Source: Gemmatimonadota bacterium (lineage in GTDB: Bacteria > Latescibacterota > UBA2968 > UBA8231). Taken from it: 64,000 bases of DNA. The stretch covers positions 621-64,620 of the forward strand of contig JABHFS010000116.1 in assembly GCA_018672475.1 (NCBI GenBank), read 5' to 3'. The notes under the pieces were generated by a model. The model was not told the DNA's origin. It worked only from the letters and a program-made list of their open reading frames with translations, and did no database searches. This document shows positions 7,962 to 47,724 of the stretch, one piece after another; position 1 is the stretch's first letter, and every line of letters starts with the position of its first letter. The translations under genes were made by a program, and so were the position numbers.

Positions 7962-7972
7962 CGGTAGTCCTC

Positions 7973-10459: not shown

Positions 10460-10567
10460 AGGGTTATGCGGAGAGCCTTGCTGCGGTGCTTGGTTGGAAC
10501 GAGAGTGTTGAAAAAGATCGACCCGTGGACCGTTGTTCGCGAGAAGAGTTCGTGTGCCAGGTCTTGT

Positions 10568-13125: not shown

Positions 13126-13128
13126 ATT

Positions 13129-14588: not shown

Positions 14589-14657
14589 GCCGATCTCGAT
14601 CTATGGGGAATATTCGCGGGTCATTACAACGTCTGAAAAGCATCGAAAGGAAATCCG

Positions 14658-17023: not shown

Positions 17024-17109
17024 CGGTGATTGATTGTGACCCCTTAAGCGATACTTTATATTTCCGACGGCTAAATATGAGTAGAAACTTATCGACGAGG
17101 AGAATTTCG

Positions 17110-17481: not shown

Positions 17482-17488
17482 GGCTGCC

Positions 17489-18307: not shown

Positions 18308-18330
18308 TTATCTATTAGAAAGGACCTAAT

Positions 18331-19101: not shown

Positions 19102-19378
19102 GCTGGGGAGAGACGAGCTATTTGAGGATATATCTTTGCTCATGTCGCTGTACTTTTAGTGCGCGCTACGTGAGCTCGCCCGCCATCCGGAAGGCGGGAC
19201 CATAAGGGGTTTCATGGTGGCAGCGGCGATGGGATGGTGGCAGAGAGGGTAGTCGTTGGTCTATTAAAGTTGCGATCCCTCAGGGCTATGACTGTCTAAG
19301 ACTTAGAGAGTGATGAAAAAAAGGATCAGACTCTTTGTAGTACATTCAGAATAGTTCAAATCAAGACAAAGTCATGAG

Positions 19379-28001: not shown

Positions 28002-28196
28002 GGTAAGCGTCCTGGTTGGCGGTGGATTGCTGAAGGGACTGTAGTGTTCTGTTGCGCGTTTTGATATGGGCGGAAAGATAGTACCGCAGGCGATTGTGGG
28101 CAATACGCGGAGATTCGTGGTTTGACGGAGCCGGGACGTCGGTTGTAGCTTACGCGCGGAAGGTGCACATGTTGCGTATAGCGGGAGACTTGTACA

Positions 28197-29026: not shown

Positions 29027-29851
29027 ATGATGACGGTTGAAGAACGCTATCTCTTCGATCTACAGGGTTATATGGTGCTCGAAGATGTGCTCAAAGCAGA
29101 CGAGTTGCGCGATCTCAATCAGGTGCTCGACGAGTACGACCTGTGGAATGAATCCCCTGGGCAGGGTGGATTCTTCGATTCTTGGCGGAACGGCGACCAC
29201 CAGGTTTCGGCCGGGCCCGTACACCGTTTTGCCAAGCCATTCCGCCAATTGCTTGGCCACACCCGCATTGTCCCCTACCTCACAGACCTACTCGGCAAAC
29301 AGTTCCGTTTCGACCACGGCCACGCGATGCTTATGAAAAAAGGTGGAGAGGCACTCGCGCTGCACGGTGGCGGAGCGCCGAAGGAGCCCGGGATCCGCTA
29401 TGAGGTCGCCGACGGACAGATCCGCTCCGAACTGTTGGTCGTCGAATACGCGTTGTGCGATGTGGCCGAGGGGGACGGAGGTCTTTGCGTGGTGCCGGGC
29501 AGTCATAAGAGCAATTTCGCCTGCCCGTCGAGCCTTGCGTCCCTTGAGAAGCCGGGGGCATGGCTGCGGAATGTGCCGCAGAAAGCCGGTTCGGTGGTTA
29601 TTTTCACCGAAGCGCTCACGCATGGTACACTGCCTTGGACGGCGGATCATGAACGTCGGGCGCTTTTTTATCGCTATACCCCGGGGTATATGGCGTTTGT
29701 GGGGCGTTACCGGGAGGATGGTCTTGAGGCATCCGATGGCGGTTACCCTCAGCCCTCACACAGCGAAGAAGGCGATTGGAGTCCCGAGGAACGGCGCATC
29801 CTCGAAGCCCCGTATTTTTGGCAACGCGACGACACTTTTCCGGAAAGCTGA
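29027..29851 (+). CDS. Phytanoyl-CoA dioxygenase (PhyH) family protein
   Basis: 274 aa. 'YLFDLQGYMVLEDVL', 'CVVPGSHKSNF' and 'VIFTEALTHG'. Closest in style to 25279..26094. Confidence 0.75.
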   Translation: MMTVEERYLFDLQGYMVLEDVLKADELRDLNQVLDEYDLWNESPGQGGFFDSWRNGDHQVSAGPVHRFAKPFRQLLGHTRIVPYLTDLLGKQFRFDHGHAMLMKKGGEALALHGGGAPKEPGIRYEVADGQIRSELLVVEYALCDVAEGDGGLCVVPGSHKSNFACPSSLASLEKPGAWLRNVPQKAGSVVIFTEALTHGTLPWTADHERRALFYRYTPGYMAFVGRYREDGLEASDGGYPQPSHSEEGDWSPEERRILEAPYFWQRDDTFPES

Positions 29852-31672: not shown

Positions 31673-31740
31673 GTGTGTCTCCTAATTGTATGGTGGACTT
31701 TAGGCGGTTAAAATAGATGTAGCGGTGCTCGCGGGCAATC

Positions 31741-31790
31741 GGGTGGTATGGGGTGGGGTGGTTAGGGGGTGGGGTGGGGTGGTTATGGGC
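31741..31790. repeat. G-rich direct repeat (GGGGTGGGGTGGTTA x2 plus a partial copy) in a divergent intergenic region
   Basis: Read directly: 'gggtggtatggggtggggtggttagggggtggggtggggtggttatgggc'. It lies between divergently oriented genes 29954..31672 (-) and 31924..33900 (+). Confidence 0.6.
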
Positions 31791-31923: not shown

Positions 31924-33900
31924 ATGGCTCGAAGCCTCATTGCAGCAAGAGTATTGCTGATAGCATTGGCATTGGCCCCACAAGTCGATGGCTCAGAGAT
32001 TTTTACCGTGGGTGGGGACGAGAGGGGGTGGTCCAGTTGGGGCGAAACCCCAGGAGGTGTCATCGCCTTCGTCGATCGCCTCGGCGACGTGCAAAATGCC
32101 GCGGGCAATCAGGTCTTTGTAGGTGTCGCCGATTCGTTGAGCGGCTGGATCATGCCCTTGCGGCTCAATCCCGATTTCAATATTTCGCTCGATGTGTTTG
32201 AACGCGGCGGCGATATCGACGTGCCGAACCTAGCCCGCAGCGATAAAGACCCCGAAGAACTGGCAGGAGTGCTCAACGGCGATCATCGGGTGGCATACGA
32301 CCGCAAATTCGTCGCCGGGCGCATCGTGCGCAATAATGGCGTCGCGATTCGCATTGATCTAGGCGCTCGCTTCGGCATGGATCGCATCGTCTTCTATCCC
32401 AGGATGACGGATCTATTTCCCTTCGGCAATGAGTTTATGCGCGGCTACGAGCTCTTCCTCAACGACGGCTTGCCGCACAATTTATTTGCCAGCGGCCAGC
32501 CCATTTTCACCTCGCCCGTGCTGCGCGAGCCGGATAATCGCGAGGTTATGGTTGATATGCAGATCGAGCCCCAGTTCGTGCGCTTCGTCGAGCTCAAATC
32601 TATATCGACGCTGGGTTTTGAGGTCGATGAAATAGAGATCTACGGCCGGGGTTTTGTGCCGACGGCCCGCTATGTGTCCAATGTGCTGGACCTGGGGCAA
32701 GAGGGGGTATGGGGGGCGATCAACTGGACCGAGGCGCTGACCGGCGGAGCGGAGAACTCGAAGCTTGAAGTCCGGGTGCGCAGCGGGATGGACGAAACGC
32801 CCGATGTCTATTATCGCTCTGTAGCCGTGAACGGGGTTAGGGAATTGCTGCCGACCGATAGCAATGGCGATACGCTGACGCAGGCAACCTACGAAAAAAG
32901 GCTGTCGGAAACCGAGCGCGGGCCGATCAGGGGGGACGCGGCCCATTGGAGCCAATGGCAACTTGTTAGCAATGGCTCCAAGCTGAATTTGCCGGCGCCG
33001 CGCCGCTATTTTCAGTTTAGCATTGATTTCGCCAACCGGACCCTCGATGCGAGCAGAGCTATTGCTGATTTGGGCTTTGAGTTTGAGAGTCCCCCAGTCG
33101 ACCGGATCGTAGCCGAAATCGATCCTCCTCGTACTATAGTCGGCGAGCAGACGGCTTTTACTTACGCGGCCCGCACTGTTAACGCCACCGGGCGCTCGGG
33201 TTTTGTGCGTTTTGAGATCGAGACGCCGGCTCGGGTTTCAGCGGTCCGAACGGTGGAGATCCTGGATGCGGACAACAACCGTCTCGACGGAGCTGAGTTT
33301 ACCGGCGACATGTTGGAAGGGAATTTACCCGCGCAGGTCGGGGCTTTTGCGATCGAAGAGGTGGCGGACGACCACTTCACCTTGAGCCTTCCGCAGATTA
33401 GCGCCGACGGCACCTTGTTGAAGATTGAATTTGATGCGGCGGTGTTTCGCTACGGAACCCGCTTTCAAGGCCGTGCCTTCGCCGATGCCAATACACTGAT
33501 TCCCTTGCAAACCGAAGGGGGAGATGCGACCTCCGAACTGGATACCGACGAGCTTTTGGTGCGGGTCACAGTGGGGTCGCAGGTGGCCGGCCCTTTGCAG
33601 ATCGAGCCCGCAGTTTTTACGCCAAATGGGGACGGGATCAACGACGAGACGGCCATCAGCTATACGGTGTTGCACCTGCTCGAGCCCTCATTGGCCGAGG
33701 TTGACGTCTACGATCTGGCCGGTCGATGTGTGCGCCGACTCAGCGCGGCGATGGTCCAGAACGGCCGCGTGCCGCTCGACTGGGATGGGCGCGGCGCTGA
33801 CGGAAATCTGGTGGTTCCAGGGGTGTACTTGCTGCAAGTCGAAATTCATTCGGATCGCGGTATCGAGCGGCGTGTGGGTAGCGTCGCCGTTGTGTACTGA
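31924..33900 (+). CDS. Secreted multidomain protein, paralog P1: signal peptide, discoidin/F5-8-type-C-like module(s), C-terminal FlgD-Ig-like/T9SS-like domain
   Basis: 658 aa. Signal peptide 'MARSLIAARVLLIALALAPQVDG'. 'VRFVELKSISTLGFEVDEIEIYGRGF' matches a discoidin domain C-terminus ('aRyvRl....lRlElyG'). 'HWSQWQ' and 'RRYFQFSIDF' follow. The C-terminus is 'VFTPNGDGINDETAISYTV...VDVYDLAGRCVRRL...PGVYLLQV...VAVVY'. Confidence 0.7.
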   Translation: MARSLIAARVLLIALALAPQVDGSEIFTVGGDERGWSSWGETPGGVIAFVDRLGDVQNAAGNQVFVGVADSLSGWIMPLRLNPDFNISLDVFERGGDIDVPNLARSDKDPEELAGVLNGDHRVAYDRKFVAGRIVRNNGVAIRIDLGARFGMDRIVFYPRMTDLFPFGNEFMRGYELFLNDGLPHNLFASGQPIFTSPVLREPDNREVMVDMQIEPQFVRFVELKSISTLGFEVDEIEIYGRGFVPTARYVSNVLDLGQEGVWGAINWTEALTGGAENSKLEVRVRSGMDETPDVYYRSVAVNGVRELLPTDSNGDTLTQATYEKRLSETERGPIRGDAAHWSQWQLVSNGSKLNLPAPRRYFQFSIDFANRTLDASRAIADLGFEFESPPVDRIVAEIDPPRTIVGEQTAFTYAARTVNATGRSGFVRFEIETPARVSAVRTVEILDADNNRLDGAEFTGDMLEGNLPAQVGAFAIEEVADDHFTLSLPQISADGTLLKIEFDAAVFRYGTRFQGRAFADANTLIPLQTEGGDATSELDTDELLVRVTVGSQVAGPLQIEPAVFTPNGDGINDETAISYTVLHLLEPSLAEVDVYDLAGRCVRRLSAAMVQNGRVPLDWDGRGADGNLVVPGVYLLQVEIHSDRGIERRVGSVAVVY

Positions 33901-33921
33901 GCACAAGCAGGGAGGGAAGAA

Positions 33922-36594
33922 TTGAACACGCGATACGTGATTTATTATGTAGTGGCCGCCTGGTGTGTGGTGGCGGGGGCGAGTTTGTTGAATGCGCAGG
34001 AGGACCTGGGGACTCGTGTTGGTACGGTGAAGCGGGGCGGTGAGGTGGATTTCGCGCCTCGCGGTCCGGGGGTCCTCTTCGATGCGCTGGATCCTTCGAT
34101 GCGCAAATGGTATGTACCTCAGGAACTTTTCAATGAATATCGCTGGTCGCAATGGCAGTATACCAACTACGCCCGGAACCAGTACCAGCGCTATGTCAAT
34201 ACCACCCAAGAAGGCGATTATTTCTACGATATCTACGGAAACTTCGTCACCCGTGGTTGGCTGATTTACGACTGGCAGGAGGACCGGCCACAGCAATTCG
34301 GCAGTAGTATCCTCAAGACCAACCGTTTCAGCTCGTGGTTCAACAAGGTCGTTGTCGCCTCGGACAACCGTGGTCAGTTTCACTATAGTCTGACGATCGG
34401 CGACGAAATTCGTACCACCCTGACGCCCATGACCTTCTCAAAGCCGGGTTTTAACGGTATCCAGTGGGACTTTGCCGCCGACAAGTACGAGGGGACGATG
34501 CTGTTGGCCCGCCCCAGTCGGCCGGCGGCGGCCACCTCGCTCGACATACCCGACCAGAAGACCAGTGTCACTAACTTGCTGGCCGGTCGTGCTATTACCC
34601 ATGTTGGTGACTTCGTTAAGGTCGGGGCGACCTATGTTACGGCCTTTCAAGCCCAGACCCTACTCGACGATTTCAGCGGCAACCCCTTTGCCGGCGGTGC
34701 ACTGACGACCGACCAGAATGCGCTGCCGATTTCGCGCATCATCATCCGCCTATCGGATGATTCACCCGAAGACGGGAGTGGTGGCGCGGCGCTTTTCGAC
34801 GACGAAATCGTTATCCGGGACGTAGATGGCAATGTGACTAGGGGCAGCGCGGTCGGTTTCGAACCGATCCGCGAAGGTGGATTTCAGCGCGTGGGTTTTC
34901 TCGCCGCCGATGGTGACGAGCGTATCGTGCTGACCTACGATTTTACGGATCCTGGCTATCTGGGACCGGATCCTTCGGTGATCGAAGAGGTTGCATTTGA
35001 ACTCGTGGTGTCGAATGACTACAAGGTAGAGATTACATCGGATCGGCAGACCAATAGCGATGCGCAGCCGGTTTTCTTGCTAGTGGAGCGGGCCGAGGGC
35101 AATATCCGCGACAACTCCAATCAGCGTCTGCTTAAATTCGATTACGGTCTGCCCACTGCCAATGTCATCTTCGGCTTCACCTTCGAAGCGAATAAGATTA
35201 TGGGCTTCGATTTCTACGGCGAATACGACTTTAATAGGCAATATCGCCAGTACCCGAATACGAACTTGCGAGACCACAGTAAGGCGGTCAAAAAAGCGGA
35301 CGCTTGGATGATGAATCTGTCGCGGGTCGCATTTCCCTACTTCGCCTTCTTGGAAGGCTACGGTATGGACGACGCCTATTCGACACGCACGTTTCTGGCG
35401 GGCACTTTGCGCCAGGACGAGATCGATTACGAGAACGAACTATCTTATGTCTATGAGTTCGTTGACGACAACGACGACCAGGATCGACGACCTGACTGGA
35501 ACCGCTTCGGGCAGCCGTTGGTAGACAACGCTGTATTTCCGGGTTTTGACGAGAACAACGATTTCATCTCGGACTTCAACCAGAATGACACGGAGGATCG
35601 GCAGAACTTTGTGCCGGACTACGAAGAGCCTTTCTTGCGCTACCACGTCGACCGGCCGGAGTTCCTTTTTGGCATCGATATGAACAACAATGGTTGGGTC
35701 GACCGCTTCGAAAACGACGAGGAACCCGACTATCCCTATCGGCGTGATCACCGCGGCTATAACGCTTACGGCGGAGTGTTTATCACGCCAGAAGCCAGAT
35801 TGACGGTGGGGCGATTGAGTGAGGTGTTGATCGACGGGGACGGCGAGAATCGCAGCACGTATCTGCTGCTGACCTATGACCGCGATTTGGCTGGTTTTGG
35901 CCGGCTGCGCTTTTACGAGAATTTCCGCCTGGTCAAGGACAATATCGCCAACAATCTCTTTCAGTGGGTGCAGCCGGCCAATTCCCGCGGCACCCAGCAA
36001 CGGATTTTCGATCCACTACCTGCGCGCGACACCTGGGTAAATACTAGCTATTTGCAATTGGATTTTCGCCGGGTGTCCCGTCTGAACGTGATAAATAAAC
36101 TCAAGGTCGATGTGTATAACCAACGCGGGCAACAGGGTGAATTGCGCGGGGTGTCGAGCTTCGTCGGTTTGATAAATAAAGCCGATTACATCTTTGATGT
36201 AGGGCGTTTTGAGATCGAACCACGCATCAAGAGCGAATTTGTCCGCGAGCGCCCTTTCCGGCAACGCGACCCGGCCCGCCGCGAGTTGACAGAGACTCTG
36301 TTTCTGATCGCCCGTTTCCCGATGTTGCGCCAGACGATTATCGAATTGGGGCTAGAACTGTCCCACTTCGAGCAATTTCGCGATGATGCGGAGGGCGTGC
36401 CATTGCACCGCAATATAGCGCCGGATTCAAATAGCCGGATTTTAGCGATCCAATTTGCCAATGCCTCTGATTTCTTGGGGTACAAGCTGCATGTGCAGAC
36501 CGGTTTCCGGCTACAACGGGAAACCTTTAAAAACTTGCCTACGAGTACTACCAGCACGATTTTTATGACGGCATATGCCGGATTAGAGAGATGA
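33922..36594 (+). CDS. Large secreted aromatic- and Asp-rich hypothetical protein (putative outer-membrane/cell-surface component)
   Basis: 890 aa, 21 nt downstream of P1. Signal peptide 'MNTRYVIYYVVAAWCVVAGASLLNAQ'. Dense alternating aromatic residues throughout. Asp-rich loops 'DDNDDQDRRPDWN' and 'DMNNNGWVDRFENDEEPDY' resemble DxNxNGxxD Ca-binding loops. No known family recognised. Confidence 0.5.
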   Translation: MNTRYVIYYVVAAWCVVAGASLLNAQEDLGTRVGTVKRGGEVDFAPRGPGVLFDALDPSMRKWYVPQELFNEYRWSQWQYTNYARNQYQRYVNTTQEGDYFYDIYGNFVTRGWLIYDWQEDRPQQFGSSILKTNRFSSWFNKVVVASDNRGQFHYSLTIGDEIRTTLTPMTFSKPGFNGIQWDFAADKYEGTMLLARPSRPAAATSLDIPDQKTSVTNLLAGRAITHVGDFVKVGATYVTAFQAQTLLDDFSGNPFAGGALTTDQNALPISRIIIRLSDDSPEDGSGGAALFDDEIVIRDVDGNVTRGSAVGFEPIREGGFQRVGFLAADGDERIVLTYDFTDPGYLGPDPSVIEEVAFELVVSNDYKVEITSDRQTNSDAQPVFLLVERAEGNIRDNSNQRLLKFDYGLPTANVIFGFTFEANKIMGFDFYGEYDFNRQYRQYPNTNLRDHSKAVKKADAWMMNLSRVAFPYFAFLEGYGMDDAYSTRTFLAGTLRQDEIDYENELSYVYEFVDDNDDQDRRPDWNRFGQPLVDNAVFPGFDENNDFISDFNQNDTEDRQNFVPDYEEPFLRYHVDRPEFLFGIDMNNNGWVDRFENDEEPDYPYRRDHRGYNAYGGVFITPEARLTVGRLSEVLIDGDGENRSTYLLLTYDRDLAGFGRLRFYENFRLVKDNIANNLFQWVQPANSRGTQQRIFDPLPARDTWVNTSYLQLDFRRVSRLNVINKLKVDVYNQRGQQGELRGVSSFVGLINKADYIFDVGRFEIEPRIKSEFVRERPFRQRDPARRELTETLFLIARFPMLRQTIIELGLELSHFEQFRDDAEGVPLHRNIAPDSNSRILAIQFANASDFLGYKLHVQTGFRLQRETFKNLPTSTTSTIFMTAYAGLER

Positions 36595-36780: not shown

Positions 36781-37641
36781 ATGAAGAAGTTTCAAGCTAT
36801 TATAGCTGCTGTGTTGATTTCTATGGTGGCTATTGGCAGCGCTTTTGCCCACCAGGGCCAGACGAAGTTCATGTTTCAGTTTCCCGATGGCTTGACCCCT
36901 GAATTGGATGGCGACATGTCGGACTGGGATATTGTCGGAGATGTCTACAAAATTCAGGGCGAAAACATGTTTAATCAGTTCGGGGCGCCGATGGACTTGG
37001 GCGATTTCAACGCCTCGCTGATATGGGCGTATAACATCACGGAGAATAAGGCGTATTTCGGAGCCTGGATTGCCGATGACGCGATCAACGATACCGAGAA
37101 GTGGTCGACGACCACCGACTGGGATCACAGCGGTGGCATATTCCGCGGCTTCGACCAGGGCGACGAGTTTGAAACCCGTTGGGCTAGCTCCCATGCACAG
37201 CGTTACGATATAGCTGGTCCGGTATTCAGTTCCTCTGGTTATTACACCCGCATCATCGATGGTTCCAAAGCTTGGGCCGGGCAGCCACCTTTTCTTGAAT
37301 GGGGTGGTGCATTCTTGCGCGGCGATGTCAATACTTTCGAGCCGGCCGAGATGTTCACCGAAATCGCTCTCACCCCTTACGACGACATCCATCCCGACGG
37401 GGCAGACGCGAGTATCGAGCATCAGTTCGTCGAAGGCCAGATCGTCGGTATCGAGGTCAACTGGGGTGATAAGGATGCCGACCCGGGCTCGTATGACGAT
37501 GCTTATTGGTCGGGTTTTGGTGGCGTTGGCGCCTCGAAGGACGCCGATCAGTTTGGCGATTATCTGCTGGCACCGGTCGAGTCCGACTTGCCGACGGCGG
37601 TCGAGACTAGCACCTGGGGTCAGATCAAGTCCAGTTTCTAA
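36781..37641 (+). CDS. Secreted hypothetical protein, possible carbohydrate-binding (CBM9/DOMON-like) module
   Basis: Start at M44 of ORF 36652..37641, preceded by an AAGGAG RBS. Signal peptide 'MKKFQAIIAAVLISMVAIGSAFA'. Trp/Asp/Gly-rich ('PELDGDMSDWDIVGD...'). Family assignment is weak. Confidence 0.45.
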   Translation: MKKFQAIIAAVLISMVAIGSAFAHQGQTKFMFQFPDGLTPELDGDMSDWDIVGDVYKIQGENMFNQFGAPMDLGDFNASLIWAYNITENKAYFGAWIADDAINDTEKWSTTTDWDHSGGIFRGFDQGDEFETRWASSHAQRYDIAGPVFSSSGYYTRIIDGSKAWAGQPPFLEWGGAFLRGDVNTFEPAEMFTEIALTPYDDIHPDGADASIEHQFVEGQIVGIEVNWGDKDADPGSYDDAYWSGFGGVGASKDADQFGDYLLAPVESDLPTAVETSTWGQIKSSF

Positions 37642-37747
37642 ATCATACCAAGTGCCGGCTTGGCACGAGTCTTGATCTGGGCAACAAGGGGCGGGGTTCG
37701 CGGGCGACCGTGAATCCCGCCGTTTTTTCGCTCGAAGGAGACATGCG

Positions 37748-39601
37748 GTGAAAAAGGTTCAGATATGGGTAGTGGGGTTGGCTGTGATCTTGTTTGGTGA
37801 GAGCGGGGCACGCGAGATCTATCAGTTGGGGGGAACTGGGGGCGTCGCGTGGAACGAGGTCGGTACAGCAACTTTTCTCGACGTCGATAAGTTGCCCGGC
37901 GGGATCCAGCCGCTCGAGACTGAGATCGGCGACAACCTGATCACCACGATGCAAAGTCGCGGCGGAGATCTGACTAGCCTGGTGAGTATTTACACCCTAC
38001 CGGGAGACTGGCAAGAGCAGCGCGTTTTGTTAGTAGATGGGGATTCGACAACGGCCTTCGTGCATCCGCCGCGCATCAATTTTTTTGCCACTTATTCCGG
38101 TATTCCCTTTTACACTGTGCCGATGTTCTTCGACTTGGGTGCGCCATTCCAGGTCGAACGGATCCGCTTTGGCGTAAGGAGCGATCAGCCAGGGCGCAAG
38201 ATTCGCCAGTTTCGCTTCTATGTCAACGACGGGCGCGAAGAAAGTAAGAACGACAAGGGCGATTTGATCTGGACTTTGTTGCGCGACGAAAAGGACAATT
38301 TGAAAACCTTGGTCGAATTTGAGATCGAACCGCAAGTGGTGCGTCATCTCTACCTGCACCCGCACGAATCGGGAGAGATTTGGGAGGTTGCCGAGTTTGA
38401 AGCATACGGACGCGGTTTTGTGCCGAGCGCATCCTTTGTCTCCGACCCGATCGACCTGGGGCAAGTTTCGAGTTTGGGGCGCATTTGGTGGAATGGCAAC
38501 CTCGATCCGCAGGCCAAAATTCTGATTCAGACCCGCAGCGGCGACGACGAGCAACCCGAGATTTACTGGCGCAAGACCGGCGTCGGCGAAGAAGAAGTGC
38601 CCCTGGGCCAGAACGGCCAACCGATGACCCGCCAAGAGTATTTGGCGATGCCGCAAAATGTGCAGGGCAAGGTCACCCAGGATCTGAAAAACTGGAGCGT
38701 CTGGCAGACATATGAATACGCGGACGGGCTCGCGGGTACTCGAATACTCTCGCCCGGTCCTCGGCAATTCATGCAATTGCGCGTTGACTTTTTTTCTACC
38801 GGTCAACAGGGCGGGCAGGTCGATTCCCTCTATTTTGAGTATTCCCAGCCGCCCGTGGTCAGGGAGGTAGTAGGCGAGATTCACCCGGCCTCGGTGAATT
38901 CGTTCGAGCCGGTTCGTTTTACCTATGCGATAAGGACGCGTTTGGATGCGGACCAGTCGGGTTTTAACGCGCTGGAGATTCGCACGCCCGCTCAGTTAGA
39001 AATAGTGCATAGCGTGCGCATCGACCGTGAAGTCGTGGCATTCGAACAGGAATCAGCTATAGATGATCCGCACAGCTTTAAGATCAGCTTCCCGCGAATC
39101 GCAACTGACCAGACTCTGTTGGAGGTGGAATTTGATGCGCGTGTATTCGTCTACGGCACGACATTTAGTGGGTCGGTGACAGACACGGCCGTCGACGAAG
39201 TCGCGCAAGAGGTGACTCCGGGAGATGCAGTGGCCGAGTTGCTCAACGACGGGTTGGGCGTACGGACCTCACTGCAAGGAGATTTACTTGGTGTGGTGGA
39301 GGCTGTGCCAAATCCGTTTTCGCCGAATGGCGACGGCATTAATGATCAGGTGGAGATCTCCTATACTCTCCAGCGCTTGACCGACGCGGTGCCCCTGTTA
39401 GCGGAAATCTACGATCTGGCCGGTCAGCGCGTGCGGCAATTGCGTGGTGCGCCGGGAGCGAGCGCGTTTTACCGGCTTGTTTGGGACGGACGGAACGAGC
39501 AGGGAGAGTTGGCCTTACCGGGGCTTTATATCGTACGTATCGTGGTCGAAGCTGATAGCGGTGACGAAGAAAAACTAAAACAGATTGGGTTGGTATACTA
39601 A
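37748..39601 (+). CDS. Secreted multidomain protein, paralog P2 (discoidin-like + FlgD-Ig/T9SS-like CTD)
   Basis: 617 aa. Signal peptide 'MKKVQIWVVGLAVILFGESGA'. 'VRHLYLHPHESGEIWEVAEFEAYGRGFVPSASFVSDPIDLGQ' is collinear with the P1 discoidin end. 'NWSVWQ' and 'PRQFMQLRVDFFS' follow. C-terminal domain 'PNPFSPNGDGINDQVEISYTL...AEIYDLAGQRVRQL...PGLYIVRI...GLVY'. Confidence 0.7.
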   Translation: MKKVQIWVVGLAVILFGESGAREIYQLGGTGGVAWNEVGTATFLDVDKLPGGIQPLETEIGDNLITTMQSRGGDLTSLVSIYTLPGDWQEQRVLLVDGDSTTAFVHPPRINFFATYSGIPFYTVPMFFDLGAPFQVERIRFGVRSDQPGRKIRQFRFYVNDGREESKNDKGDLIWTLLRDEKDNLKTLVEFEIEPQVVRHLYLHPHESGEIWEVAEFEAYGRGFVPSASFVSDPIDLGQVSSLGRIWWNGNLDPQAKILIQTRSGDDEQPEIYWRKTGVGEEEVPLGQNGQPMTRQEYLAMPQNVQGKVTQDLKNWSVWQTYEYADGLAGTRILSPGPRQFMQLRVDFFSTGQQGGQVDSLYFEYSQPPVVREVVGEIHPASVNSFEPVRFTYAIRTRLDADQSGFNALEIRTPAQLEIVHSVRIDREVVAFEQESAIDDPHSFKISFPRIATDQTLLEVEFDARVFVYGTTFSGSVTDTAVDEVAQEVTPGDAVAELLNDGLGVRTSLQGDLLGVVEAVPNPFSPNGDGINDQVEISYTLQRLTDAVPLLAEIYDLAGQRVRQLRGAPGASAFYRLVWDGRNEQGELALPGLYIVRIVVEADSGDEEKLKQIGLVY

Positions 39602-39602
39602 T

Positions 39603-41330
39603 ATGATATGGAGCGGTGGTTGGCGGGCGGTGCTTTGTTGGGCATTGGCGTGTGGCTGTGTCGCACAAGTGGAGCAAATCGCACCAGGAGGTAACCCTGG
39701 GGTGGTGGCCAGGGTAGATTCGACGGAGATATTTGCTGCCGAGTTGCATGCCTTTGTTGAGCAGATGCCCGCGGGCCTGCGTGCGCGAACCTCGAACGAG
39801 GGGGCGCGCATGTCCTATTTGCGCAGTCTGCTGGCCAAGCACTTGCTCGAACTGGAGGCGCGCGCGCAGGGCCTGGACATATCGTTCGAAGTCCAGGCGG
39901 ACCTTATGGCACGCTGGCGCGAGCATATCCTCAAAGTTTATCGAAACGAGGTGCTAGCCTCTCAGGTGCAGATTTCCGAAGCGGACATTCGCGCTTATTT
40001 CACACAGAAGGGGTTGGACCGTCGGCGGCAGGTCGCGGGTATTTTGCTCGACGAAGAGGCTTTAGCGCATGAGATCCACGCCAGGCTGGCAGCCGGAGAA
40101 GACTTCGCCGAGTTGGCTGAGCAATACACAATCGACGAACGCTCGGCGACCCAGGGCGGTCTGCTCGGGTTTGTCGATTTAGAACGGGCGCAGCGGTTGC
40201 GGATTCCCGCGGCGGTTTTTCGCGAGTTGCAGGCTGGACAGTTTTCACCCGTGTTGCCGATGGGCAAACGCTACCAGATCGTGCGTTTCTTTCAGGATCA
40301 GCCGGTGCCCTTCGCGGAGCGGCGCCAGCAGATTTATGATTTGCTCTATGAGCGCGAGCTGGTAGTGGCAGAGCAGCGTGAAATTCGCCATTTGGAGCGA
40401 AAATTAAAACTACAGCTGGTCTCGGAAGGGGTAAAGCTGCTACAGGACAAAGCGGAGCTTTATACCCGTGTACGGCGATCTCATCTTTCCGCCGCGGAGA
40501 GTGCACAACCGTTATTTACCTATAGGGGCGGGTCCGTCACGCTGGGCGACTATGTCGATATCCTCGGCCGGGATTTGCGCAGCCTGTCGGGTTGGGGGGT
40601 GCAGGACGGAGAAGAGGTGGTGGCGGCGGCCGGCGAGTTGGTCTTGGGGCAATGGTTGATTTTTGAGGCGGCGCGGCGGGCGGCGATAACTGATGGCCGG
40701 AATCAACAGCGCTGGCTGGAGGCGAATCGCAAGGAACTAATGATTAAAAAGCTAAGAAAGCTGGAAATTATCGACAAAGTTCAGCCGGACCGCGAAGACG
40801 CCAGGGATTTTTACGAGGACAACGAGAAATTGTTCCAAACCAACGGTGAATATATCCTCGTCGAGGTGTTGTTGGAGACGGAGGTAGAAGCTGTAGAGCT
40901 GCGGCGGCAAATCGCTCGGGGAGAGCAGACCCTAGCCTCCCTCGCGCAGCAGTATCCTCTGCGGGCCGAAATGCGTGATGAGGTGGGCATGATGCACATG
41001 GGGGATTACGAGCGGCTGACCCTGCCCCGACTCTATAAGGCGGTACAGGAGGCTGAGCTGAACGCGATCGTCGGTCCGGTGGAGGTCGAGGACGGGTTCA
41101 GTCTCTTCAAAGTCCTCGATCGCGAAGAACGTAAAGTGCAACCGTTCTCTGAAGTGGAATCGAAGGCGCGCGCCCTGTTGCGCGGCCAGCAGCGGGAGCA
41201 GCGCTTTGAGGAATGGATCGACTCGCTAATGGACAAGTACGACGATCGCATCGCCATTTCCGAGCGGGCTTTGGCGGCTGCCCTTCCAGATACTTTCCTG
41301 CAACGGCTAACACGAGACGGCCAAGAGTGA
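39603..41330 (+). CDS. SurA/PrsA-like peptidyl-prolyl cis-trans isomerase (PpiC-type) periplasmic chaperone
   Basis: ATG 2 nt after the P2 stop. Lipoprotein-like N-terminus 'MIWSGGWRAVLCWALACGC'. SurA_N-like 'VARVDSTEIFAAELHAFVEQ'. Parvulin domain 'QVAGILLDEEALAHEIHARLAAGEDFAELAEQYTIDERSATQGGLLGFVD'. A second degenerate parvulin-like region lies near the C-terminus. Confidence 0.7.
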   Translation: MIWSGGWRAVLCWALACGCVAQVEQIAPGGNPGVVARVDSTEIFAAELHAFVEQMPAGLRARTSNEGARMSYLRSLLAKHLLELEARAQGLDISFEVQADLMARWREHILKVYRNEVLASQVQISEADIRAYFTQKGLDRRRQVAGILLDEEALAHEIHARLAAGEDFAELAEQYTIDERSATQGGLLGFVDLERAQRLRIPAAVFRELQAGQFSPVLPMGKRYQIVRFFQDQPVPFAERRQQIYDLLYERELVVAEQREIRHLERKLKLQLVSEGVKLLQDKAELYTRVRRSHLSAAESAQPLFTYRGGSVTLGDYVDILGRDLRSLSGWGVQDGEEVVAAAGELVLGQWLIFEAARRAAITDGRNQQRWLEANRKELMIKKLRKLEIIDKVQPDREDARDFYEDNEKLFQTNGEYILVEVLLETEVEAVELRRQIARGEQTLASLAQQYPLRAEMRDEVGMMHMGDYERLTLPRLYKAVQEAELNAIVGPVEVEDGFSLFKVLDREERKVQPFSEVESKARALLRGQQREQRFEEWIDSLMDKYDDRIAISERALAAALPDTFLQRLTRDGQE

Positions 41331-41359: not shown

Positions 41360-43999
41360 ATGGAACGCATGCTGAAGTACGGATCTTTGTATTTGGCCTT
41401 GTTATTGGCCGCGGGGGGCACGGTTTGCGCACAAGGGCATCGCCTGCGGGCGAACCGAGTCGAAGTGCAATCCGGCAGCCATTGGCGGGCTTGGCAGTTC
41501 CCGGCGGATATGGTGGAGATCTCACCGGCGGGTACGGTGAAGTCGAGATTTATCCAGGCGCCGCATAACGCGGTATCGGACGTCGCGGATTTCACCTATG
41601 AAATCAATGCCTCTCACAAGGATCATTACGACAATTACTTTGACGCCGAGGGGGTGGCCCTCGCGCGCGGCGGGATCAAGAAGGCCCTATCGAACGTGGG
41701 GTTGGCGGGTCGGGTATTGGACGGCGACGAGGGCAGTTTCTGGGAGCCGGATCCAGCCGACCCGTTGGCGGATTGGGTGCTCGAAATAGATTTGGGACGG
41801 CTGGTTTCGGCAACTACGCTGGTCTTGCGTTTTGCCGAAAAAGCAGATCCCTTCCTGCAGTTCAGGGTCCATTCGGCGGGCGGGCAGAATCCGTTCGGCA
41901 CATCGGACAGGAGCGGGGCGCTGGATTATGTGCTGGTCGGCGGCACGACTCAGCCCAATCGCGACCAACGTCTCTTCGAATTCGATCTCGAGCCGGTGGG
42001 GGAGCATTCCGAAGGGTGGACGGGACGCATGGTCCAGTATTTACGCGTCGCGGTTACGGCTTCGAACGGCGACCGGGCGGAATCGATAAGCGAAACAGAC
42101 TATCGCGCATTGGCCGCAGCCGATCGCGGCGCGGTCGAATATGTCTGGGAAATCGCCGGCGAGCAGCGCATAGTGTCGGAGACCCGGTATCAGGAGCTGC
42201 CGTCTGAGCAGCAAGGCGGGGTGCGCTACTTTCGCCGTGAGCGGCCCCGGCTCGCCGAGGTGGAAGTGTGGACCGTCGGGCAAAATATCGCGCAGGGGCT
42301 GATCGGGCGCGGCGGCAGCGTGCATGATGTCAATCCCAATTCCTCTCCGGAGCTGGCCTTTGACGGCAATATGCGCACGGAGTGGGCCGGTTTGGTCTAC
42401 GATGTCACCGGCGAAACGGCCGAATGGGGGTTGCTCAATATCGACCTAGGAGCGCATTTTCGCGTCGAGGCCGTGCGCTTAATCACTCGCGTTCTGCGCC
42501 GCAACGGCAATGTGCTCTATGGTTATCTGCTGCGTGGTTCGGATGGTTCACGGGCGCCTGATGGCAGCTTTATCTGGGATCAACTCAGTGGCAAAGACCG
42601 TCAGATAAATCAGAGTACTAGGCTTTTCGAGGATCGTTTCACCCCGGAGAATATGCGTTTTTTGGAGTTTCGCAACATGGATGTCGCCCGGCGGACCAAG
42701 GCGTATCTGGGGCATCGGGTGCCGAGCGTGGTCACCGAGATCCAGGTTTACGCCACCGGCTATTTGCCGATCCTCGAAATAAGTTCCGACCTGATCGATC
42801 TGGGCAGCGCTAAAAATTTGACGACGATCGATTGGCAGGCTGATACGCCTGCGGGTACGGCCGTGGAAGTCCGCACCCGGACGGGCAACGACTTGCGCGA
42901 GGTCTTTCGCTATTTCAAGCAGGACGGTACGGAGGTCGCCACGGAGGAAGAATACAACGAACTGCCGAGTTTTTTTAAAGGCGAGATGCTCACCGAGGTC
43001 CTGCCGGGCCCAGGGTGGAGCAATTGGAGCCAGGCTTATGTTTCGCCGGGAGAGGCTATACGTTCCCCGAGTCCGCGGCGTTATATGATGATCCAGACGC
43101 GTCTGCTGACCGATGATACGCAGGTGGCCCCCAGTATAGAAGGCATCCAGGTGAATTTTACGGCCCCCTTCGCAGAAAGCATTATCGGGGAGATCGCGCC
43201 GAATCGACAGGTTCCGGTCGGAGAACCGGTGGATTTCGATCTATTTGTGCGTCCGTCTTTCGCTGCGCAGGATCCGGGTTTTGACAGGCTTCGTCTCGTC
43301 GCCCCCTCCCGGGCGGAGTTGACCTTGAGGCAGGTGCGCCTGGGGTCGGAAGCGGAGTTGCTGACGGGGGGTGGGGAAGAATTTGTTCGGCAGGCGGATG
43401 GGGAGGTTGCCAACTCGTCGGGTTTGCTCTTGCAGGTCGTCGGAGAGCACACCGATTCGCTGAGCATCGAGTTGCCCGAAATTCTGCGTAGGGGGGGAGC
43501 CGATCTGATGGAGGTTGCCTTTACCTCGCGGATTTTTCAGAGCGGATCTACCTTTCAAGTCGAAGTGGGTAATTCAGATCAGGCAGGTAACTGGCAGGAG
43601 GTCGATCCAGGCCAGGGTGTAGGGGATGAATTGGGTGCGGGTGAGGGACTGACCGTATTGACGCCGCTCGGGGGGCGCACGGTCAAGGTAATAAGTGCGC
43701 CCGGGGTATTTACCCCGAACGGGGACGGGGCAAACGATCAGGCCATCTTTGAGTTCGCAGTGCTCAAAATTAATACCGAGCGTCCGGTCGAGGTTGAACT
43801 CTTTGATTTGGGCGGGCGCGGAGTGCGGCGCTTAGGGGAAGAGCGCGGTCAGGCCAATGGCCTTTACCGCATAGTTTGGGATGGCCGGGACGAAGCCGGC
43901 GCTCTAGTGCCGCCGGGGTTGTATCTCGCACGCATCGCTGTTGCTAGCGACAAAGGGGCGGACGACGCGATCCAACAGGTTGTGGGCGTTGCCTATTGA
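41360..43999 (+). CDS. Secreted multidomain protein, paralog P3, with an extra N-terminal discoidin domain (two F5/8-type-C-like modules + FlgD-Ig/T9SS-like CTD)
   Basis: Start at M50 of ORF 41213..43999, with signal peptide 'MERMLKYGSLYLALLLAAGGTVCAQ'. 'VLDGDEGSFWEP' and 'AFDGNMRTEWAG' are classic discoidin 'fDGd..t.W' blocks. 'MRFLEFRNMDVARRTK...VTEIQVYATGY' and 'RRYMMIQTRLL' follow. C-terminal domain 'VFTPNGDGANDQAIFEFAV...VELFDLGGRGVRRL...PGLYLARI...VGVAY'. Confidence 0.7.
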   Translation: MERMLKYGSLYLALLLAAGGTVCAQGHRLRANRVEVQSGSHWRAWQFPADMVEISPAGTVKSRFIQAPHNAVSDVADFTYEINASHKDHYDNYFDAEGVALARGGIKKALSNVGLAGRVLDGDEGSFWEPDPADPLADWVLEIDLGRLVSATTLVLRFAEKADPFLQFRVHSAGGQNPFGTSDRSGALDYVLVGGTTQPNRDQRLFEFDLEPVGEHSEGWTGRMVQYLRVAVTASNGDRAESISETDYRALAAADRGAVEYVWEIAGEQRIVSETRYQELPSEQQGGVRYFRRERPRLAEVEVWTVGQNIAQGLIGRGGSVHDVNPNSSPELAFDGNMRTEWAGLVYDVTGETAEWGLLNIDLGAHFRVEAVRLITRVLRRNGNVLYGYLLRGSDGSRAPDGSFIWDQLSGKDRQINQSTRLFEDRFTPENMRFLEFRNMDVARRTKAYLGHRVPSVVTEIQVYATGYLPILEISSDLIDLGSAKNLTTIDWQADTPAGTAVEVRTRTGNDLREVFRYFKQDGTEVATEEEYNELPSFFKGEMLTEVLPGPGWSNWSQAYVSPGEAIRSPSPRRYMMIQTRLLTDDTQVAPSIEGIQVNFTAPFAESIIGEIAPNRQVPVGEPVDFDLFVRPSFAAQDPGFDRLRLVAPSRAELTLRQVRLGSEAELLTGGGEEFVRQADGEVANSSGLLLQVVGEHTDSLSIELPEILRRGGADLMEVAFTSRIFQSGSTFQVEVGNSDQAGNWQEVDPGQGVGDELGAGEGLTVLTPLGGRTVKVISAPGVFTPNGDGANDQAIFEFAVLKINTERPVEVELFDLGGRGVRRLGEERGQANGLYRIVWDGRDEAGALVPPGLYLARIAVASDKGADDAIQQVVGVAY

Positions 44000-44025
44000 C
44001 GGCGGACGGATGAAGTACGATATAG

Positions 44026-44054
44026 AGCGGCCGCTTTTGCGGTCGCTTTTTTTG
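44026..44054 (+). terminator. Rho-independent terminator downstream of P3
   Basis: 'agcggccgcttttgcggtcgcttttttt': a GC-rich imperfect hairpin followed by a 7-T run, in the convergent gap between P3 (+) and the phosphoesterase (-). Confidence 0.5.
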
Positions 44055-45669: not shown

Positions 45670-47724
45670 TCAATAAGTCAGCGAGAAGAAACCTATGTTG
45701 TGTTGGTCGGCGATGGCGTCGACGGATAGCCTGTAGATATAGGTCCCCGGTGGCAGCAGCTGACCGTCGGGGCCGCGGCCGGCCCAATGGCGGGTGAACT
45801 CGCCGCTTTGTGAACGCAAAGGATCGAGCGTGGCGACCTGCGCGCCGGCGAGGTTGAATATGTGCACGGTAATCGGCCGCGGTTGTGTAACTTCGCGCAA
45901 TTTATAGGCCACTGTCAAGACATCGTTAATGCCGTCGCCGTTGGGTGTGAATACTTTGGGATCGACGCGGACGGCGGCAAAGAGGGCGCCGCCGATCGGG
46001 GTCTGTACGGCGAGGGCGTCGCCGGAGAAGCGGAATGTCGCGTTGCCGGGCCGGACGTTCTGCTTGATCTGGTCGGGATCGGCGCTGTCGTAGATCCAGC
46101 TGTTGAAAGGCGCTCCGAAGCGCAGTACCGAGGTGTCGAAGACGACCTCTATCTGTTTGAACGAATCGTCAGTGCCGATCAGTTTTGGAAAGCTGACGAC
46201 GATGCGGTCGTCGAGGATCTGGGCGGGAAAGTCGCCGTCGCCGTCGAGGGTGAAGGGGATTTCGACGGCGTCGACGACGACGGATCTCAGGGTGGTGGCG
46301 CGGGTATGGGTGAGGATTTCCAGGCGGTCGAAACCGAGATCGCTTTCGTTGAGCGTCGGCCGAACCACATAAGTGAAGGTCTGCGGTGCAAAGGAGTTGA
46401 CCTCGGTGGGCCAGATTTCACCGACGACCTCGCTGGCGGCAGGAGCTTCACTAAAATGCAGGCTCAACTGGTCGAGGCGGGGGGCGGAGTTGAGGGTGCT
46501 GAATAGGCGGACGGCGATCTGTATATAGCGGCTGGGGCTGGGGGAGGTCAGGGGAGTCCCGTCGCGCCAGGCGGCGGCGGTTATGGTTTCATCGCGCCAG
46601 CCGGCTGCAAAATCGTAGGGCGGTGACCAGAAGCTCCAGTTATCGGTGTCGTAGATGGTCGGGCGGCGGCCTCTGGGGTCGATTTTCTCGTATTGTTCTA
46701 GGGTGATGGGGACGATGTCCCCGTTGGTGTTTTTGTCGAAATAGAGGCTGGGGTCCGGGGTCTGGCCGGTGCGGGTGCGGATTTCGATGCGGGTGCCCGC
46801 CGGCAGTTCGCCGCTCCAGCGGATCTTGTCCCAACTGACGGTCTGGCCGAAATCGAGAATCTGGGAGAGGTAAACGGTTTTGGCGACATACCCTTCGCCA
46901 TAGACCTCGAATTCGGCGATCTCCCAGTTGCTCAACGGGAAAGTGCGCAGGGTGAGCCAGCGGATCGAGCGGGTGTTAAAACGGTAATCGACGACGATAT
47001 CGAGGTTTTCGCGGGTCGACTGGATAATGTCGAGGTTGGCCCCTTGGGGGGCTTGGGCGCTGTCGGCGACTCGTATCTCGTACCACTTGACGTAATTGTC
47101 GGCGAAACTGGTTTCGGGAAAGCGTGCGAATGGAATTTGCGGGGCGCTAAGCCCCTCGATCAGCGTCCGGTCGTCCTCCGGGCCGAGTCGGGGATAAAAG
47201 CGCACGCGGTTTACGGGCACGTCGGCGCCGAAATCGAAGGGACAGCCGCAGGCCCAACCCTCGCCGATCCCCGGTCGGCTGTTGGGGTCTTGGGTAAAGC
47301 GACGGAAGTGGGCGGTTTTGGGGTCGCCATCGAGCATTTTGAACAAGTTGAAGTTCTGGCCTTGGCCGCCGTGCGAGGTGCCGCCGGTATAGGGCAATGG
47401 GATAGGGGTCGAGCCGGCTCCCAGGTTGGTCTCGGGGTCGGCTCCCACTAAGTTGACCGTGGGGTCGATAAAACGGGGCTGGATCGAATTGGCGGAGAAA
47501 TCGATCAGCGTATCGGTGCCGGCGCCGTGCGGCGTGATACCGACGGGCATCGAGCGCAAGAGTTGGCCGTCCTGGTCGAAGACCTGGTAGGAGCCGGCGT
47601 TCTCCTCTCCTAACGCGTCCTGCCAGGCATTGCCATCAGGGCCGCCAAGGTGGTATTCGGTACGGCCCAAAGCCGGTGTCGCTGTGAGCAGGGCGCAATG
47701 CAGCAAAAGGTAGATACGGCGCAT
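45670..47724 (-). CDS. Secreted multidomain protein, paralog P4 (discoidin-like + FlgD-Ig/T9SS-like CTD)
   Basis: 684 aa. Signal peptide 'MRRIYLLLHCALLTATPALG'. 'FKMLDGDPKTAHF' is a discoidin block. 'IRWLTLRTFPLSNWEIAEFEVYGEGYVAKTVYLSQILDFGQ' is collinear with P1-P3. 'SRYIQIAVRLFS' follows. C-terminal domain 'VFTPNGDGINDVLTVAYKL...VHIFNLAGAQVATL...PGTYIYRL...FSLTY'. Confidence 0.7.
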   Translation of the reverse strand: MRRIYLLLHCALLTATPALGRTEYHLGGPDGNAWQDALGEENAGSYQVFDQDGQLLRSMPVGITPHGAGTDTLIDFSANSIQPRFIDPTVNLVGADPETNLGAGSTPIPLPYTGGTSHGGQGQNFNLFKMLDGDPKTAHFRRFTQDPNSRPGIGEGWACGCPFDFGADVPVNRVRFYPRLGPEDDRTLIEGLSAPQIPFARFPETSFADNYVKWYEIRVADSAQAPQGANLDIIQSTRENLDIVVDYRFNTRSIRWLTLRTFPLSNWEIAEFEVYGEGYVAKTVYLSQILDFGQTVSWDKIRWSGELPAGTRIEIRTRTGQTPDPSLYFDKNTNGDIVPITLEQYEKIDPRGRRPTIYDTDNWSFWSPPYDFAAGWRDETITAAAWRDGTPLTSPSPSRYIQIAVRLFSTLNSAPRLDQLSLHFSEAPAASEVVGEIWPTEVNSFAPQTFTYVVRPTLNESDLGFDRLEILTHTRATTLRSVVVDAVEIPFTLDGDGDFPAQILDDRIVVSFPKLIGTDDSFKQIEVVFDTSVLRFGAPFNSWIYDSADPDQIKQNVRPGNATFRFSGDALAVQTPIGGALFAAVRVDPKVFTPNGDGINDVLTVAYKLREVTQPRPITVHIFNLAGAQVATLDPLRSQSGEFTRHWAGRGPDGQLLPPGTYIYRLSVDAIADQHNIGFFSLTY

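Follow-up and report, generated by a model that had tools for sequence, protein, structure and literature searches.

What is the function of a large secreted protein that has no recognisable family and is encoded directly behind the gene of a putative surface protein? The question is raised by a gene for an 890-residue protein in a 64,000-nucleotide stretch (the window) of contig JABHFS010000116.1, from a Gemmatimonadota bacterium placed by GTDB in Latescibacterota. An earlier first-pass annotation, made from the letters of the DNA, regarded this protein as a candidate outer-membrane partner, either channel or anchor, dedicated to four neighbouring secreted proteins, P1 to P4. Our analyses support such a partnership, be it as channel or as anchor, through the predicted fold of the protein, hereafter the barrel protein, and the adjacency of its gene to P genes. 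We give somewhat better than even odds (about 0.55) to the reading that the barrel protein forms the outer-membrane core of a module dedicated to exporting or displaying the P surface proteins encoded with it, and engages their immunoglobulin (Ig)-like C-terminal domain. Export of the protein by Sec, its predicted barrel fold, the tight, subtype-specific and ancient linkage of its gene to P genes and the presence of a SurA-like chaperone in the same cassette are the established parts of this reading.

The barrel gene and the predicted fold of its product

The stop codon of P1 ends at position 33900 and the barrel gene begins at 33922, confirming the spacer of 21 nt described earlier. The start codon is TTG, and the open reading frame list of the window gives a product of 890 residues. 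A Shine-Dalgarno-like GGGAGGG in this spacer is consistent with co-transcription and translational coupling of P1 and the barrel gene. The identical protein (P0001) was called on nine metagenome contigs, and a chance open reading frame is excluded because relatives of the protein fill about 1,044 clusters at 50% identity. The gene and its segments, whose boundaries are in large part taken from predicted structures, are as follows:

33922..36594, plus strand: barrel gene (open reading frame call, AlphaFold2 models, Foldseek, family profile search)
33910..33916, plus strand: Shine-Dalgarno-like GGGAGGG in the P1-barrel spacer, 5 bases before the start (read from the sequence)
33922..33996, plus strand: signal peptide, residues 1-25, predicted cut after LNA (sequence; helix in both models)
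33997..34377, plus strand: N-terminal periplasmic or plug-like region, residues 26-152 (models and conservation)
34378..34662, plus strand: predicted barrel strands 1-5, residues 153-247 (DSSP of model 2)
34663..35148, plus strand: predicted beta-sandwich-like insert in outer loop L3, residues 248-409 (both models)
35149..35367, plus strand: predicted barrel strands 6-9, residues 410-482 (model 2, connection lengths)
35368..35748, plus strand: Asp/Asn-rich loop L5, residues 483-609 (conservation; model confidence partly low)
35677..35712, plus strand: EF-hand-like 12-residue loop DMNNNGWVDRFE, residues 586-597, pattern D-x-N-x-N-G-x-V-D-x-x-E
35749..36591, plus strand: predicted barrel strands 10-22, residues 610-890 (model 2, connection lengths)

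The signal peptide noted in the first-pass annotation was borne out, as the n-, h- and c-regions of a Sec signal peptide are all recognisable in the N-terminus (MNTRYVIYYVVAAWCVVAGASLLNA/QE) and the 'AQ' at the predicted cleavage site is kept in the family consensus. Both structural models show this segment, the least conserved of the protein in the family alignment, as a helix over residues 3-20/24. The protein is rich in aromatic residues (F+W+Y 13.8%) and in Asp and Asn (D+N 14.9%), compared with 7.9-11.6% and 6.8-12.2%, respectively, in ten other large proteins of the window. The enrichment in aromatic residues is, however, only mild, and the 286/329-residue neighbour, with 13.7% F+W+Y and 12.5% D+N, is the only one of similar composition. 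Membership in a recognisable family had been denied to the protein, and our searches agree: a scan of Pfam and NCBIfam at E ≤ 0.1 returned only a spurious match to TraX, the barrel family profile found no chain in the PDB at E ≤ 10, and a profile of the distant family likewise found nothing meaningful there. Plug (PF07715), TonB_dep_Rec (PF00593), PorP/SprF (PF11751/TIGR03519), SprA, Usher (PF00577) and POTRA/Omp85 models of Pfam and NCBIfam had no match in the window barrel. These hidden Markov model (HMM) scans and the sequence of residues 26-45 agree with the earlier statement that TonB box, POTRA and PorP/SprF signatures are missing.

Two AlphaFold2 models of the barrel protein were obtained, the first with 50 homologs as input (mean predicted local distance difference test score, pLDDT, 70.7; predicted template modelling score, pTM, 0.71), and the second with 71 added members of a paralog group of ~38% identity that came from a second homolog search (pLDDT 80.1, pTM 0.79). 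The same 22 long antiparallel strands, with a mean length of ~14 residues (14.3), are predicted in both models at residues 153-247, 410-482 and 610-887, and we take the strand count of the modelled barrel to be about 22, give or take 2. Topology was assigned from the DSSP assignment of model 2 and the lengths of the connections, counted back from the C-terminus. The periplasmic turns in this assignment have 3, 3, 2, 2, 2, 3, 5, 6, 2 and 2 residues, and the outer loops 3, 16, 162, 10, 127, 5, 29, 9, 8, 17 and 5 residues. A clean alternation of short turns with longer loops is a hallmark of outer-membrane proteins, and it is because of this alternation that the insert in L3, which has about 10 short strands at a pLDDT of around 90 in both models, and loop L5 are placed outside the cell. 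The N-terminal region is less readily modelled: pLDDT is below 50 for residues 23-94 in both models, and residues 26-94 are unmodelled though strongly conserved. Many residues within 26-152 are at least 90% conserved, and residues 95-152 form a small beta domain in model 2 (strands 99-102, 108-112, 116-120, 128-132 and 143-150). An even/odd alternation in hydropathy failed to separate the barrel strands from those of the insert and was not used as evidence.

In a Foldseek comparison with the PDB, all 33-34 matches at E ≤ 1e-3 were outer-membrane barrels for both models. The top match in each case was SlpA of Deinococcus (E about 3e-8), and the others included LptD, MtrB, the ushers FimD and PapC, TonB-dependent receptors, porins and SprA. 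TM-scores were all 0.13-0.27; the predicted fold class is clear, and no solved family is a close match. The large outer-membrane beta-barrel proposed in the first-pass annotation was therefore recovered, both in the ~22-strand barrel of AlphaFold2 and in matches that were outer-membrane barrels only, and the structure comparison that had been suggested as a check yielded a barrel topology and no soluble enzyme fold. By its predicted structure, the protein is a transmembrane beta-barrel. It has the general attributes of an outer-membrane barrel, namely a signal peptide, an antiparallel barrel, short turns with long loops and likeness in Foldseek; beyond these, only the gene position characteristic of PorP/SprF and a motif-level EF-hand loop link it to recognised classes.

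That loop lies in L5, the most conserved part of the protein, where 35% of the alignment columns are at least 95% identical among 100 family members, versus 10-16% elsewhere. Both of the acidic motifs that had earlier been likened to calcium-binding sites were found, DDNDDQDRRPDWN at residues 515-527 and DMNNNGWVDRFENDEE at residues 586-601, and D586, N588, N590, D594 and E597 of DMNNNGWVDRFE are invariant in 121 family sequences. DMNNNGWVDRFE agrees with the consensus of EF-hand, dockerin and TSP3-type loops, D-x-[DN]-x-[DN]-G-x-[ILV]-[DE]-x-x-[DE], as a motif-level match only, and the Pfam models EF-hand, Dockerin and TSP_3 had no match in the barrel protein. Binding of calcium by the L5 loop is accordingly proposed as putative.

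A large family, its cassette and its distant loci

The barrel family is undescribed, large and well conserved in Latescibacterota and related bacteria. A word-indexed search identified more than 1,160 relatives, every one annotated as hypothetical and none with a Pfam domain, and the named ones came from metagenome-assembled genomes (MAGs) of Latescibacterota or MAGs labelled Gemmatimonadetes. An exhaustive profile search gave the clusters cited above, 356 of them at E ≤ 1e-30; they include a distant full-length tier, with some members from MAGs labelled Ignavibacteria and Bacteroidota. At least 540 loci with the barrel family were found in species-representative genomes, and among the 80 best matches single complete chromosomes carry at least 5-6 copies.

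The neighbours of the barrel gene in the window are as follows:

31924..33900, plus strand: P1, 658 residues, secreted, with a CHU_C/FlgD_ig C-terminal domain (Pfam FlgD_ig 39.9 bits, CHU_C 25.1 bits)
36781..37641, plus strand: s286, a 286-residue secreted protein with C-terminal AVExxTWGxIKxxF (gene call, motif search)
37690..37721, plus strand: intrinsic-terminator-like hairpin with a 14-bp stem, 10 G-C pairs and a T tail, ending the P1-barrel-s286 unit
37748..39601, plus strand: P2, a 617-residue P-family paralog (Pfam, blastp)
39702..41330, plus strand: SurA-like periplasmic peptidyl-prolyl isomerase (PPIase) with two parvulin domains (Pfam Rotamase, Rotamase_2, SurA_N)
41360..43999, plus strand: P3, a long P-family paralog with a discoidin (F5/8 type C) region (Pfam, gene call, blastp)
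44024..44049, plus strand: terminator-like hairpin closing the P2-PPIase-P3 unit (sequence)
45670..47724, minus strand: P4, a 684-residue P-family paralog (CHU_C 41.6 bits, FlgD_ig 33 bits, blastp)

P1 to P4 are indeed a paralog family, as had been asserted, with blastp E values of 1e-38 to 1e-86 between them. The true starts of two of the genes are uncertain: the longest open reading frames of the PPIase (39585-41330) and P3 (41213-43999), both on the plus strand, overlap the preceding genes, and gene calls on identical contigs place the starts at 39702 and 41360, respectively.

We compared the window proteins with all open reading frames of 88 loci that encode barrel relatives at 37-100% identity. 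A P-family gene lies no more than 300 nt upstream on the same strand of 87 of the 105 barrels in these loci; eight of the remaining barrels follow another barrel, six have no contig room upstream and four are preceded by something else. Counted by locus, a P gene is present in 87 of the 88, s286 in 71 and the SurA-like PPIase in 65. The pairing is specific to subtype, since barrels of the window's kind (type 1) were preceded by a P1-type gene in 59 cases and type-2 barrels, which are ~38% identical to them, were always preceded by long P3-type genes that bear discoidin regions. Conservation of the gene beside P1 homologs in other genomes, on which the first-pass annotation had staked its proposal, was hence found, and it is kept even in an Ignavibacteria relative of 27% identity. 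The C-terminus of the P proteins is an Ig-like domain marked by the motif FTPNGDG-ND, and the most strongly conserved columns of P1-type proteins fall within this domain. Its scores lie near or over the Pfam thresholds of FlgD_ig and CHU_C and fall short of the NCBIfam cutoffs for type IX secretion system (T9SS) models. CHU_C is the type-B signal domain of the T9SS, and the Ig-like CHU_C/FlgD_ig class serves as a type IX sorting signal. The second conserved partner, s286, ends in AVExxTWGxIKxxF, an invariant motif found in 70 of 77 members and, among about 3,500 open reading frames, in no unrelated one.

Several other observations were made on the cassettes. Two loci (L004, at 1-6805, and L005) hold a tandem array of at least six near-identical ~311-residue copies of the s286 family beside a Peptidase_A24 (prepilin-peptidase-type) gene, and one s286 relative has a weak match to CBM9_1. 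In 28 cassettes (e.g., L027, 17781-19790), the last P gene is immediately followed by a gene for a polytopic inner-membrane protein with DUF6785 and DUF6784 and at least eight hydrophobic segments; this gene lies on the same strand as the cassette in 92% of cases and is absent from the window. Membrane-anchored tetratricopeptide repeat (TPR) proteins of ~740 residues with a PMT_2 (glycosyltransferase family 39-like) region are encoded near cassettes in 38 loci (e.g., L007, 9898-12126), and a family of ~260-residue lipoproteins is another recurrent neighbour.

Distant relatives of the barrel lie in loci of a different make-up. In an Ignavibacteria MAG, a 1,007-residue barrel (27% identity over 976 residues to the window barrel, E 5e-63) is encoded in the order ExbB, ExbD, ExbD, P homolog, 310-residue small barrel, big barrel and 1,045-residue TPR protein. 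The P homolog has the same FTPNGDG-ND C-terminal domain, and sub-threshold matches link the small barrel to PorV_fam (E 2.8e-15), PorQ and PorP_SprF across its whole length. Comparison of five distant loci (L089, at 5579-19187, L091, L092, L093 and L094) revealed an orthologous ~1,050-residue TPR protein and P homologs in all five, ExbB-ExbD-ExbD in four, and a small PorV/PorP-like barrel immediately upstream of the big one in L089, L093 and L094; of these three small barrels, one has a recorded PorP_SprF match and one was shortened by the gene caller. The distant loci also hold one to three tandem barrels, s286-type proteins, SurA-like PPIase, DUF6785, DUF4159 and ~260-residue lipoproteins. 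A candidate tonB gene after exbD-exbD in L093 was rejected, as it encodes a lipoprotein of the ~260-residue, DUF4159-related family and has no TonB signature. BLAST searches of the window and the 88 close loci with ExbB, ExbD, the ~1,050-residue TPR protein and the PorV-like barrel came back without a homolog. L092 comes from the same MAG lineage that has a 71%-identical ortholog of the window barrel, and close relatives of the organism therefore probably carry both such a 'master' locus and satellite cassettes of the window type. The 'master' loci may represent an undescribed envelope machine.

Modes of action and competing explanations

If the barrel serves the P proteins, P1 and the barrel would be produced together from one transcript, and the C-terminal domain of P would engage the barrel, either by docking at its outer face or on passage through its pore. 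In favour of this role are the predicted barrel fold, the linkage and subtype-specific pairing with P genes, the pair kept at 27% identity in Ignavibacteria, the carrier, TPR and ExbB-ExbD-ExbD genes of the distant loci, the high conservation of the P1 C-terminal domain and of L5, and a protein with a T9SS-type tail encoded in the window. In the docking mode, L3 and a calcium-loaded L5 would hold the P protein outside, comparable to PorP/SprF with type-B cargo or to SlpA, a proposed scaffold of a surface layer through its metal-stabilised insertions, which the acidic L5 resembles. In the translocon mode, the P protein would pass through the barrel acting as a small translocon. The SurA-like PPIase could chaperone the barrel or its cargo in the periplasm, and possibly holds the conserved, unmodelled N-terminus of the barrel, by analogy to the chaperone on the N-terminus of SprA. 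In an ancestral or 'master' version, the PorV/PorP-like protein would be the carrier, the TPR protein the scaffold and ExbB-ExbD-ExbD the source of energy, in roles comparable to those of PorV, SprE and GldLM.

The closest precedent in gene position is PorP/SprF (PF11751, TIGR03519). PorP-like barrels anchor type-B cargo, and PorP/SprF are FadL-type barrels of about 300 residues and 14 strands (PMC9143113) whose gene lies, as a genomic rule, directly downstream of that of a type-B (CHU_C) C-terminal domain protein (PMC12618676). Likewise, the barrel gene comes right after the gene of a protein with a CHU_C/type-B-like C-terminal domain (here by 21 nt), and both form cognate, subtype-specific pairs that are numerous per genome (PMC12618676, PMC9143113). 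However, the barrel protein differs in its 890 residues, about 22 predicted strands, large inserts and lack of HMM similarity, and in distant relatives a PorV/PorP-like gene co-occurs with the big barrel, so that the two are not equivalent.

A number of points weigh against the proposed role in export or display of P proteins. Contact between P and the barrel is only presumed, and since a true PorP-like gene co-occurs with it, the big barrel would have to be more than a substitute for PorP. The C-terminal domains of the P proteins are borderline (17-23 bits for TIGR04131 versus a cutoff of 35, and 21-42 bits for CHU_C versus 27), and the similarity of the TPR protein to PorW/SprE is below threshold and weaker than generic YbgF/BamD TPR matches. 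Finally, a TonB-dependent importer has precisely this architecture, a 22-strand barrel with an N-terminal domain and linkage to ExbBD.

We suggest only tentatively that the barrel is the conduit of an unrecognised T9SS-like system, energised by ExbBD, through which Latescibacterota, Ignavibacteria and related FCB bacteria would export and display proteins. One 'master' locus would then supply the motor, a ~1,050-residue TPR scaffold, a PorV/PorP-like carrier, lipoproteins and one to three barrels, and satellite cassettes (P, barrel, s286 and SurA-like PPIase) would diversify the displayed surface proteins. The translocon of the T9SS consists of a large barrel with a PPIase, PorV, the TPR protein SprE and a chaperone on the N-terminus of the barrel (PMC10994853). 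SprA/Sov (PDB 8gl8) is comparable to the barrel protein in being a large barrel linked to a PPIase, a PorV-family carrier, a TPR protein and cargo with a C-terminal domain, in its association with a proton-driven motor of the MotA/ExbB class, and in a conserved N-terminal extension that possibly needs a chaperone (PMC10994853). The differences are considerable, though: SprA has about 2,400 residues and 36 strands and no sequence similarity to the barrel, its Foldseek matches had E values of 1e-4 to 1e-3 with TM-scores of 0.17-0.23 (8gl8_A against model 2, E 1.7e-4, TM 0.17), the PPIase here is a SurA-like parvulin and the motor is of the ExbB/ExbD type, not GldLM, and the window cassette has no motor, TPR protein or carrier.

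A nutrient importer similar to TonB-dependent transporters (TBDTs) such as SusC is the main, though doubtful, alternative. The N-terminal domain would close the barrel and opening would be driven by ExbBD; P proteins, through their discoidin regions, and the CBM9-like s286 would be surface binders comparable to SusD/E/F, and the cassettes would be transport cores resembling those of polysaccharide utilization loci (PULs). Much of the evidence agrees with such a system, beginning with the about 22 predicted strands and the N-terminal domain of ~128 (~130) residues, the ExbB-ExbD-ExbD genes beside distant relatives in four of five loci, and a multi-copy family with at least six members per chromosome in a PUL-like distribution. 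It also has surface-protein neighbours, with carbohydrate-binding-type F5/8 type C regions in P3-type proteins and the weak CBM9_1 match in an s286 relative, the DUF6785/6784 inner-membrane protein that trails the cassette in 28 loci, genes for heparinase II/III-like, sulfatase, GDSL and sugar-acid enzymes flanking the window cassette, and TBDTs among the Foldseek matches (E around 1e-4). Nonetheless, Plug and TonB_dep_Rec HMMs were unmatched in the window protein at E ≤ 0.1, in 50 close members at E ≤ 1 and in 52 distant members at E ≤ 0.01, and residues 26-45 hold no consensus resembling a TonB box. No TonB gene was identified beside ExbBD, the gene in that position encoding an unrelated lipoprotein, and neither the window nor any of the 88 close loci has ExbBD. 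The partners of the barrel point elsewhere too: known TBDT/Sus loci feature no SurA-like PPIase, no PorP-like carriers, no giant TPR protein and no proteins with C-terminal domains like those of P, and it is unusual in TBDTs for an outer loop to be the most conserved part.

A role as a general structural protein or porin of the outer membrane, a scaffold of the SlpA/OmpM type without an SLH tether, is unlikely; the adjacency of P genes would then reflect only a shared regulation of envelope components. SlpA of Deinococcus/Thermus (SlpA_C, PDB 8ae1), a very large barrel, led the Foldseek ranking for both models, and the acidic, metal-site-like insertions of the barrel protein recall those of SlpA, whose pore insertions owe their stability to metal sites coordinated by Asp and which is itself proposed to be a scaffold or anchor, not an open pore (PMC9388160). 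At the sequence level, SlpA_C (PF21620) matched neither the window barrel nor 50 close members, but sub-threshold matches were obtained in 13 of 52 distant members (best 2e-7, about 20 bits versus a cutoff of 35), residues 410-482 align with these matches, and one distant relative has a recorded match at E ≤ 1e-5. This signal agrees with the Foldseek ranking and is insufficient for family membership, indicating a resemblance at the level of the fold only. TM-scores are only 0.18-0.27, and SlpA has 28-30 strands and an SLH domain with a coiled coil that tether it to peptidoglycan; neither is present here, as Pfam found no SLH domain in the barrel and model 2 has no long helix after the signal peptide. 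Moreover, subtype-specific pairing with P and conservation across phyla would be hard to explain without a functional link, and at least six diverged copies per genome are atypical of a housekeeping scaffold.

It is very improbable that the barrel is an usher-like assembly platform with the PPIase as periplasmic chaperone, P as polymerising Ig-like subunits and the beta-sandwich as plug, for although FimD and PapC are among the Foldseek matches (E about 2e-5 to 5e-5), the insert comes after the first 5-6 strands, as it does in ushers, and a chaperone-like periplasmic gene is dedicated to the cassette, TM-scores are about 0.2, Usher and PapD HMMs were unmatched, the P proteins show none of the missing-strand or donor-strand signatures tested, the neighbouring chaperone is SurA-like and not PapD-like, and the turn/loop alternation puts the insert outside the cell instead of on a periplasmic turn. 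A 24-strand, usher-like topology was set aside as its extra strand would span only 6 residues. Omp85/TpsB proteins differ in their POTRA domains and 16 strands from the barrel protein, with its about 22 predicted strands and no POTRA/Omp85 match.

The surrounding window and significance for Latescibacterota

Outside the cassette, the window has several features of its own. A glucose/sorbosone dehydrogenase (GSDH; 6513-8648, minus strand) carries a Por_Secre_tail C-terminal domain at 34.6 bits versus a cutoff of 27; as this is above the Pfam threshold, the organism makes cargo in the style of T9SS type A. Catabolic genes flank the cassette (11779-13125, 19862-22168, 22165-23184 and 26871-28103, all on the minus strand), and the flanks encode a sulfatase, a heparinase II/III-like protein with DUF4962, a GDSL esterase, a mandelate racemase-type dehydratase, short-chain dehydrogenases and GFO/IDH/MocA oxidoreductases, giving the neighbourhood the look of a PUL for glycan and sugar-acid catabolism. 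Paralogs of PhyH-type Fe(II)/2-oxoglutarate dioxygenases are unusually many, four together with one WelO5-like (4563-5459, 5565-6389 and 25279-26094 on the minus strand, 16199-17023 and 29027-29851 on the plus strand), and PhyH genes also adjoin barrels in L004, L006 and L091. Three large TPR proteins are encoded in the window (e.g., in the region 7973-10459, minus strand). GC skew is positive in each 2-kb bin of the window (1-64000) despite genes on both strands, which suggests that the plus strand is the leading strand throughout. Upstream of P1, a G-rich tandem repeat (31733-31789, plus strand; 21 nt x 2, with runs like those of G-quadruplexes) lies 8 nt upstream of a -35-like TTGACT. It was rejected as a part of the system, being absent upstream of P1 orthologs in 12 related loci, and is lineage-specific.

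Latescibacterota are a widespread, uncultured phylum of the FCB superphylum; to our knowledge, their cell surface is essentially unknown and the phylum has no genetic system. Our literature search returned no relevant paper that ties Latescibacter* to T9SS or type IX secretion, and none that treats DUF6785, DUF6784 or DUF4159 in this setting. Outer-membrane barrels with surface-protein partners of the C-terminal domain type are of a known kind; the protein family is undescribed, and the surrounding gene system may be a distinct machine. The present analysis delimits a large family of about 1,044 clusters, for which neither Pfam nor NCBIfam has a model and the searched literature held no paper, as well as a cassette that recurs around it. 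If the barrel docks or exports P, it would explain how varied sets of Ig-like and discoidin proteins come to be displayed on the surface of these bacteria, and the logic of type IX secretion, with C-terminal domain cargo, cognate barrel, PPIase, TPR scaffold and proton-driven motor, would extend to a much smaller barrel and a different motor. If instead the importer explanation is true, the family would form a TonB-dependent-like class that today's HMMs miss, and would probably play the part of SusC/D in Latescibacterota. In both cases, the barrel family offers a testable handle on the envelope biology of Latescibacterota and is worth adding to domain databases.

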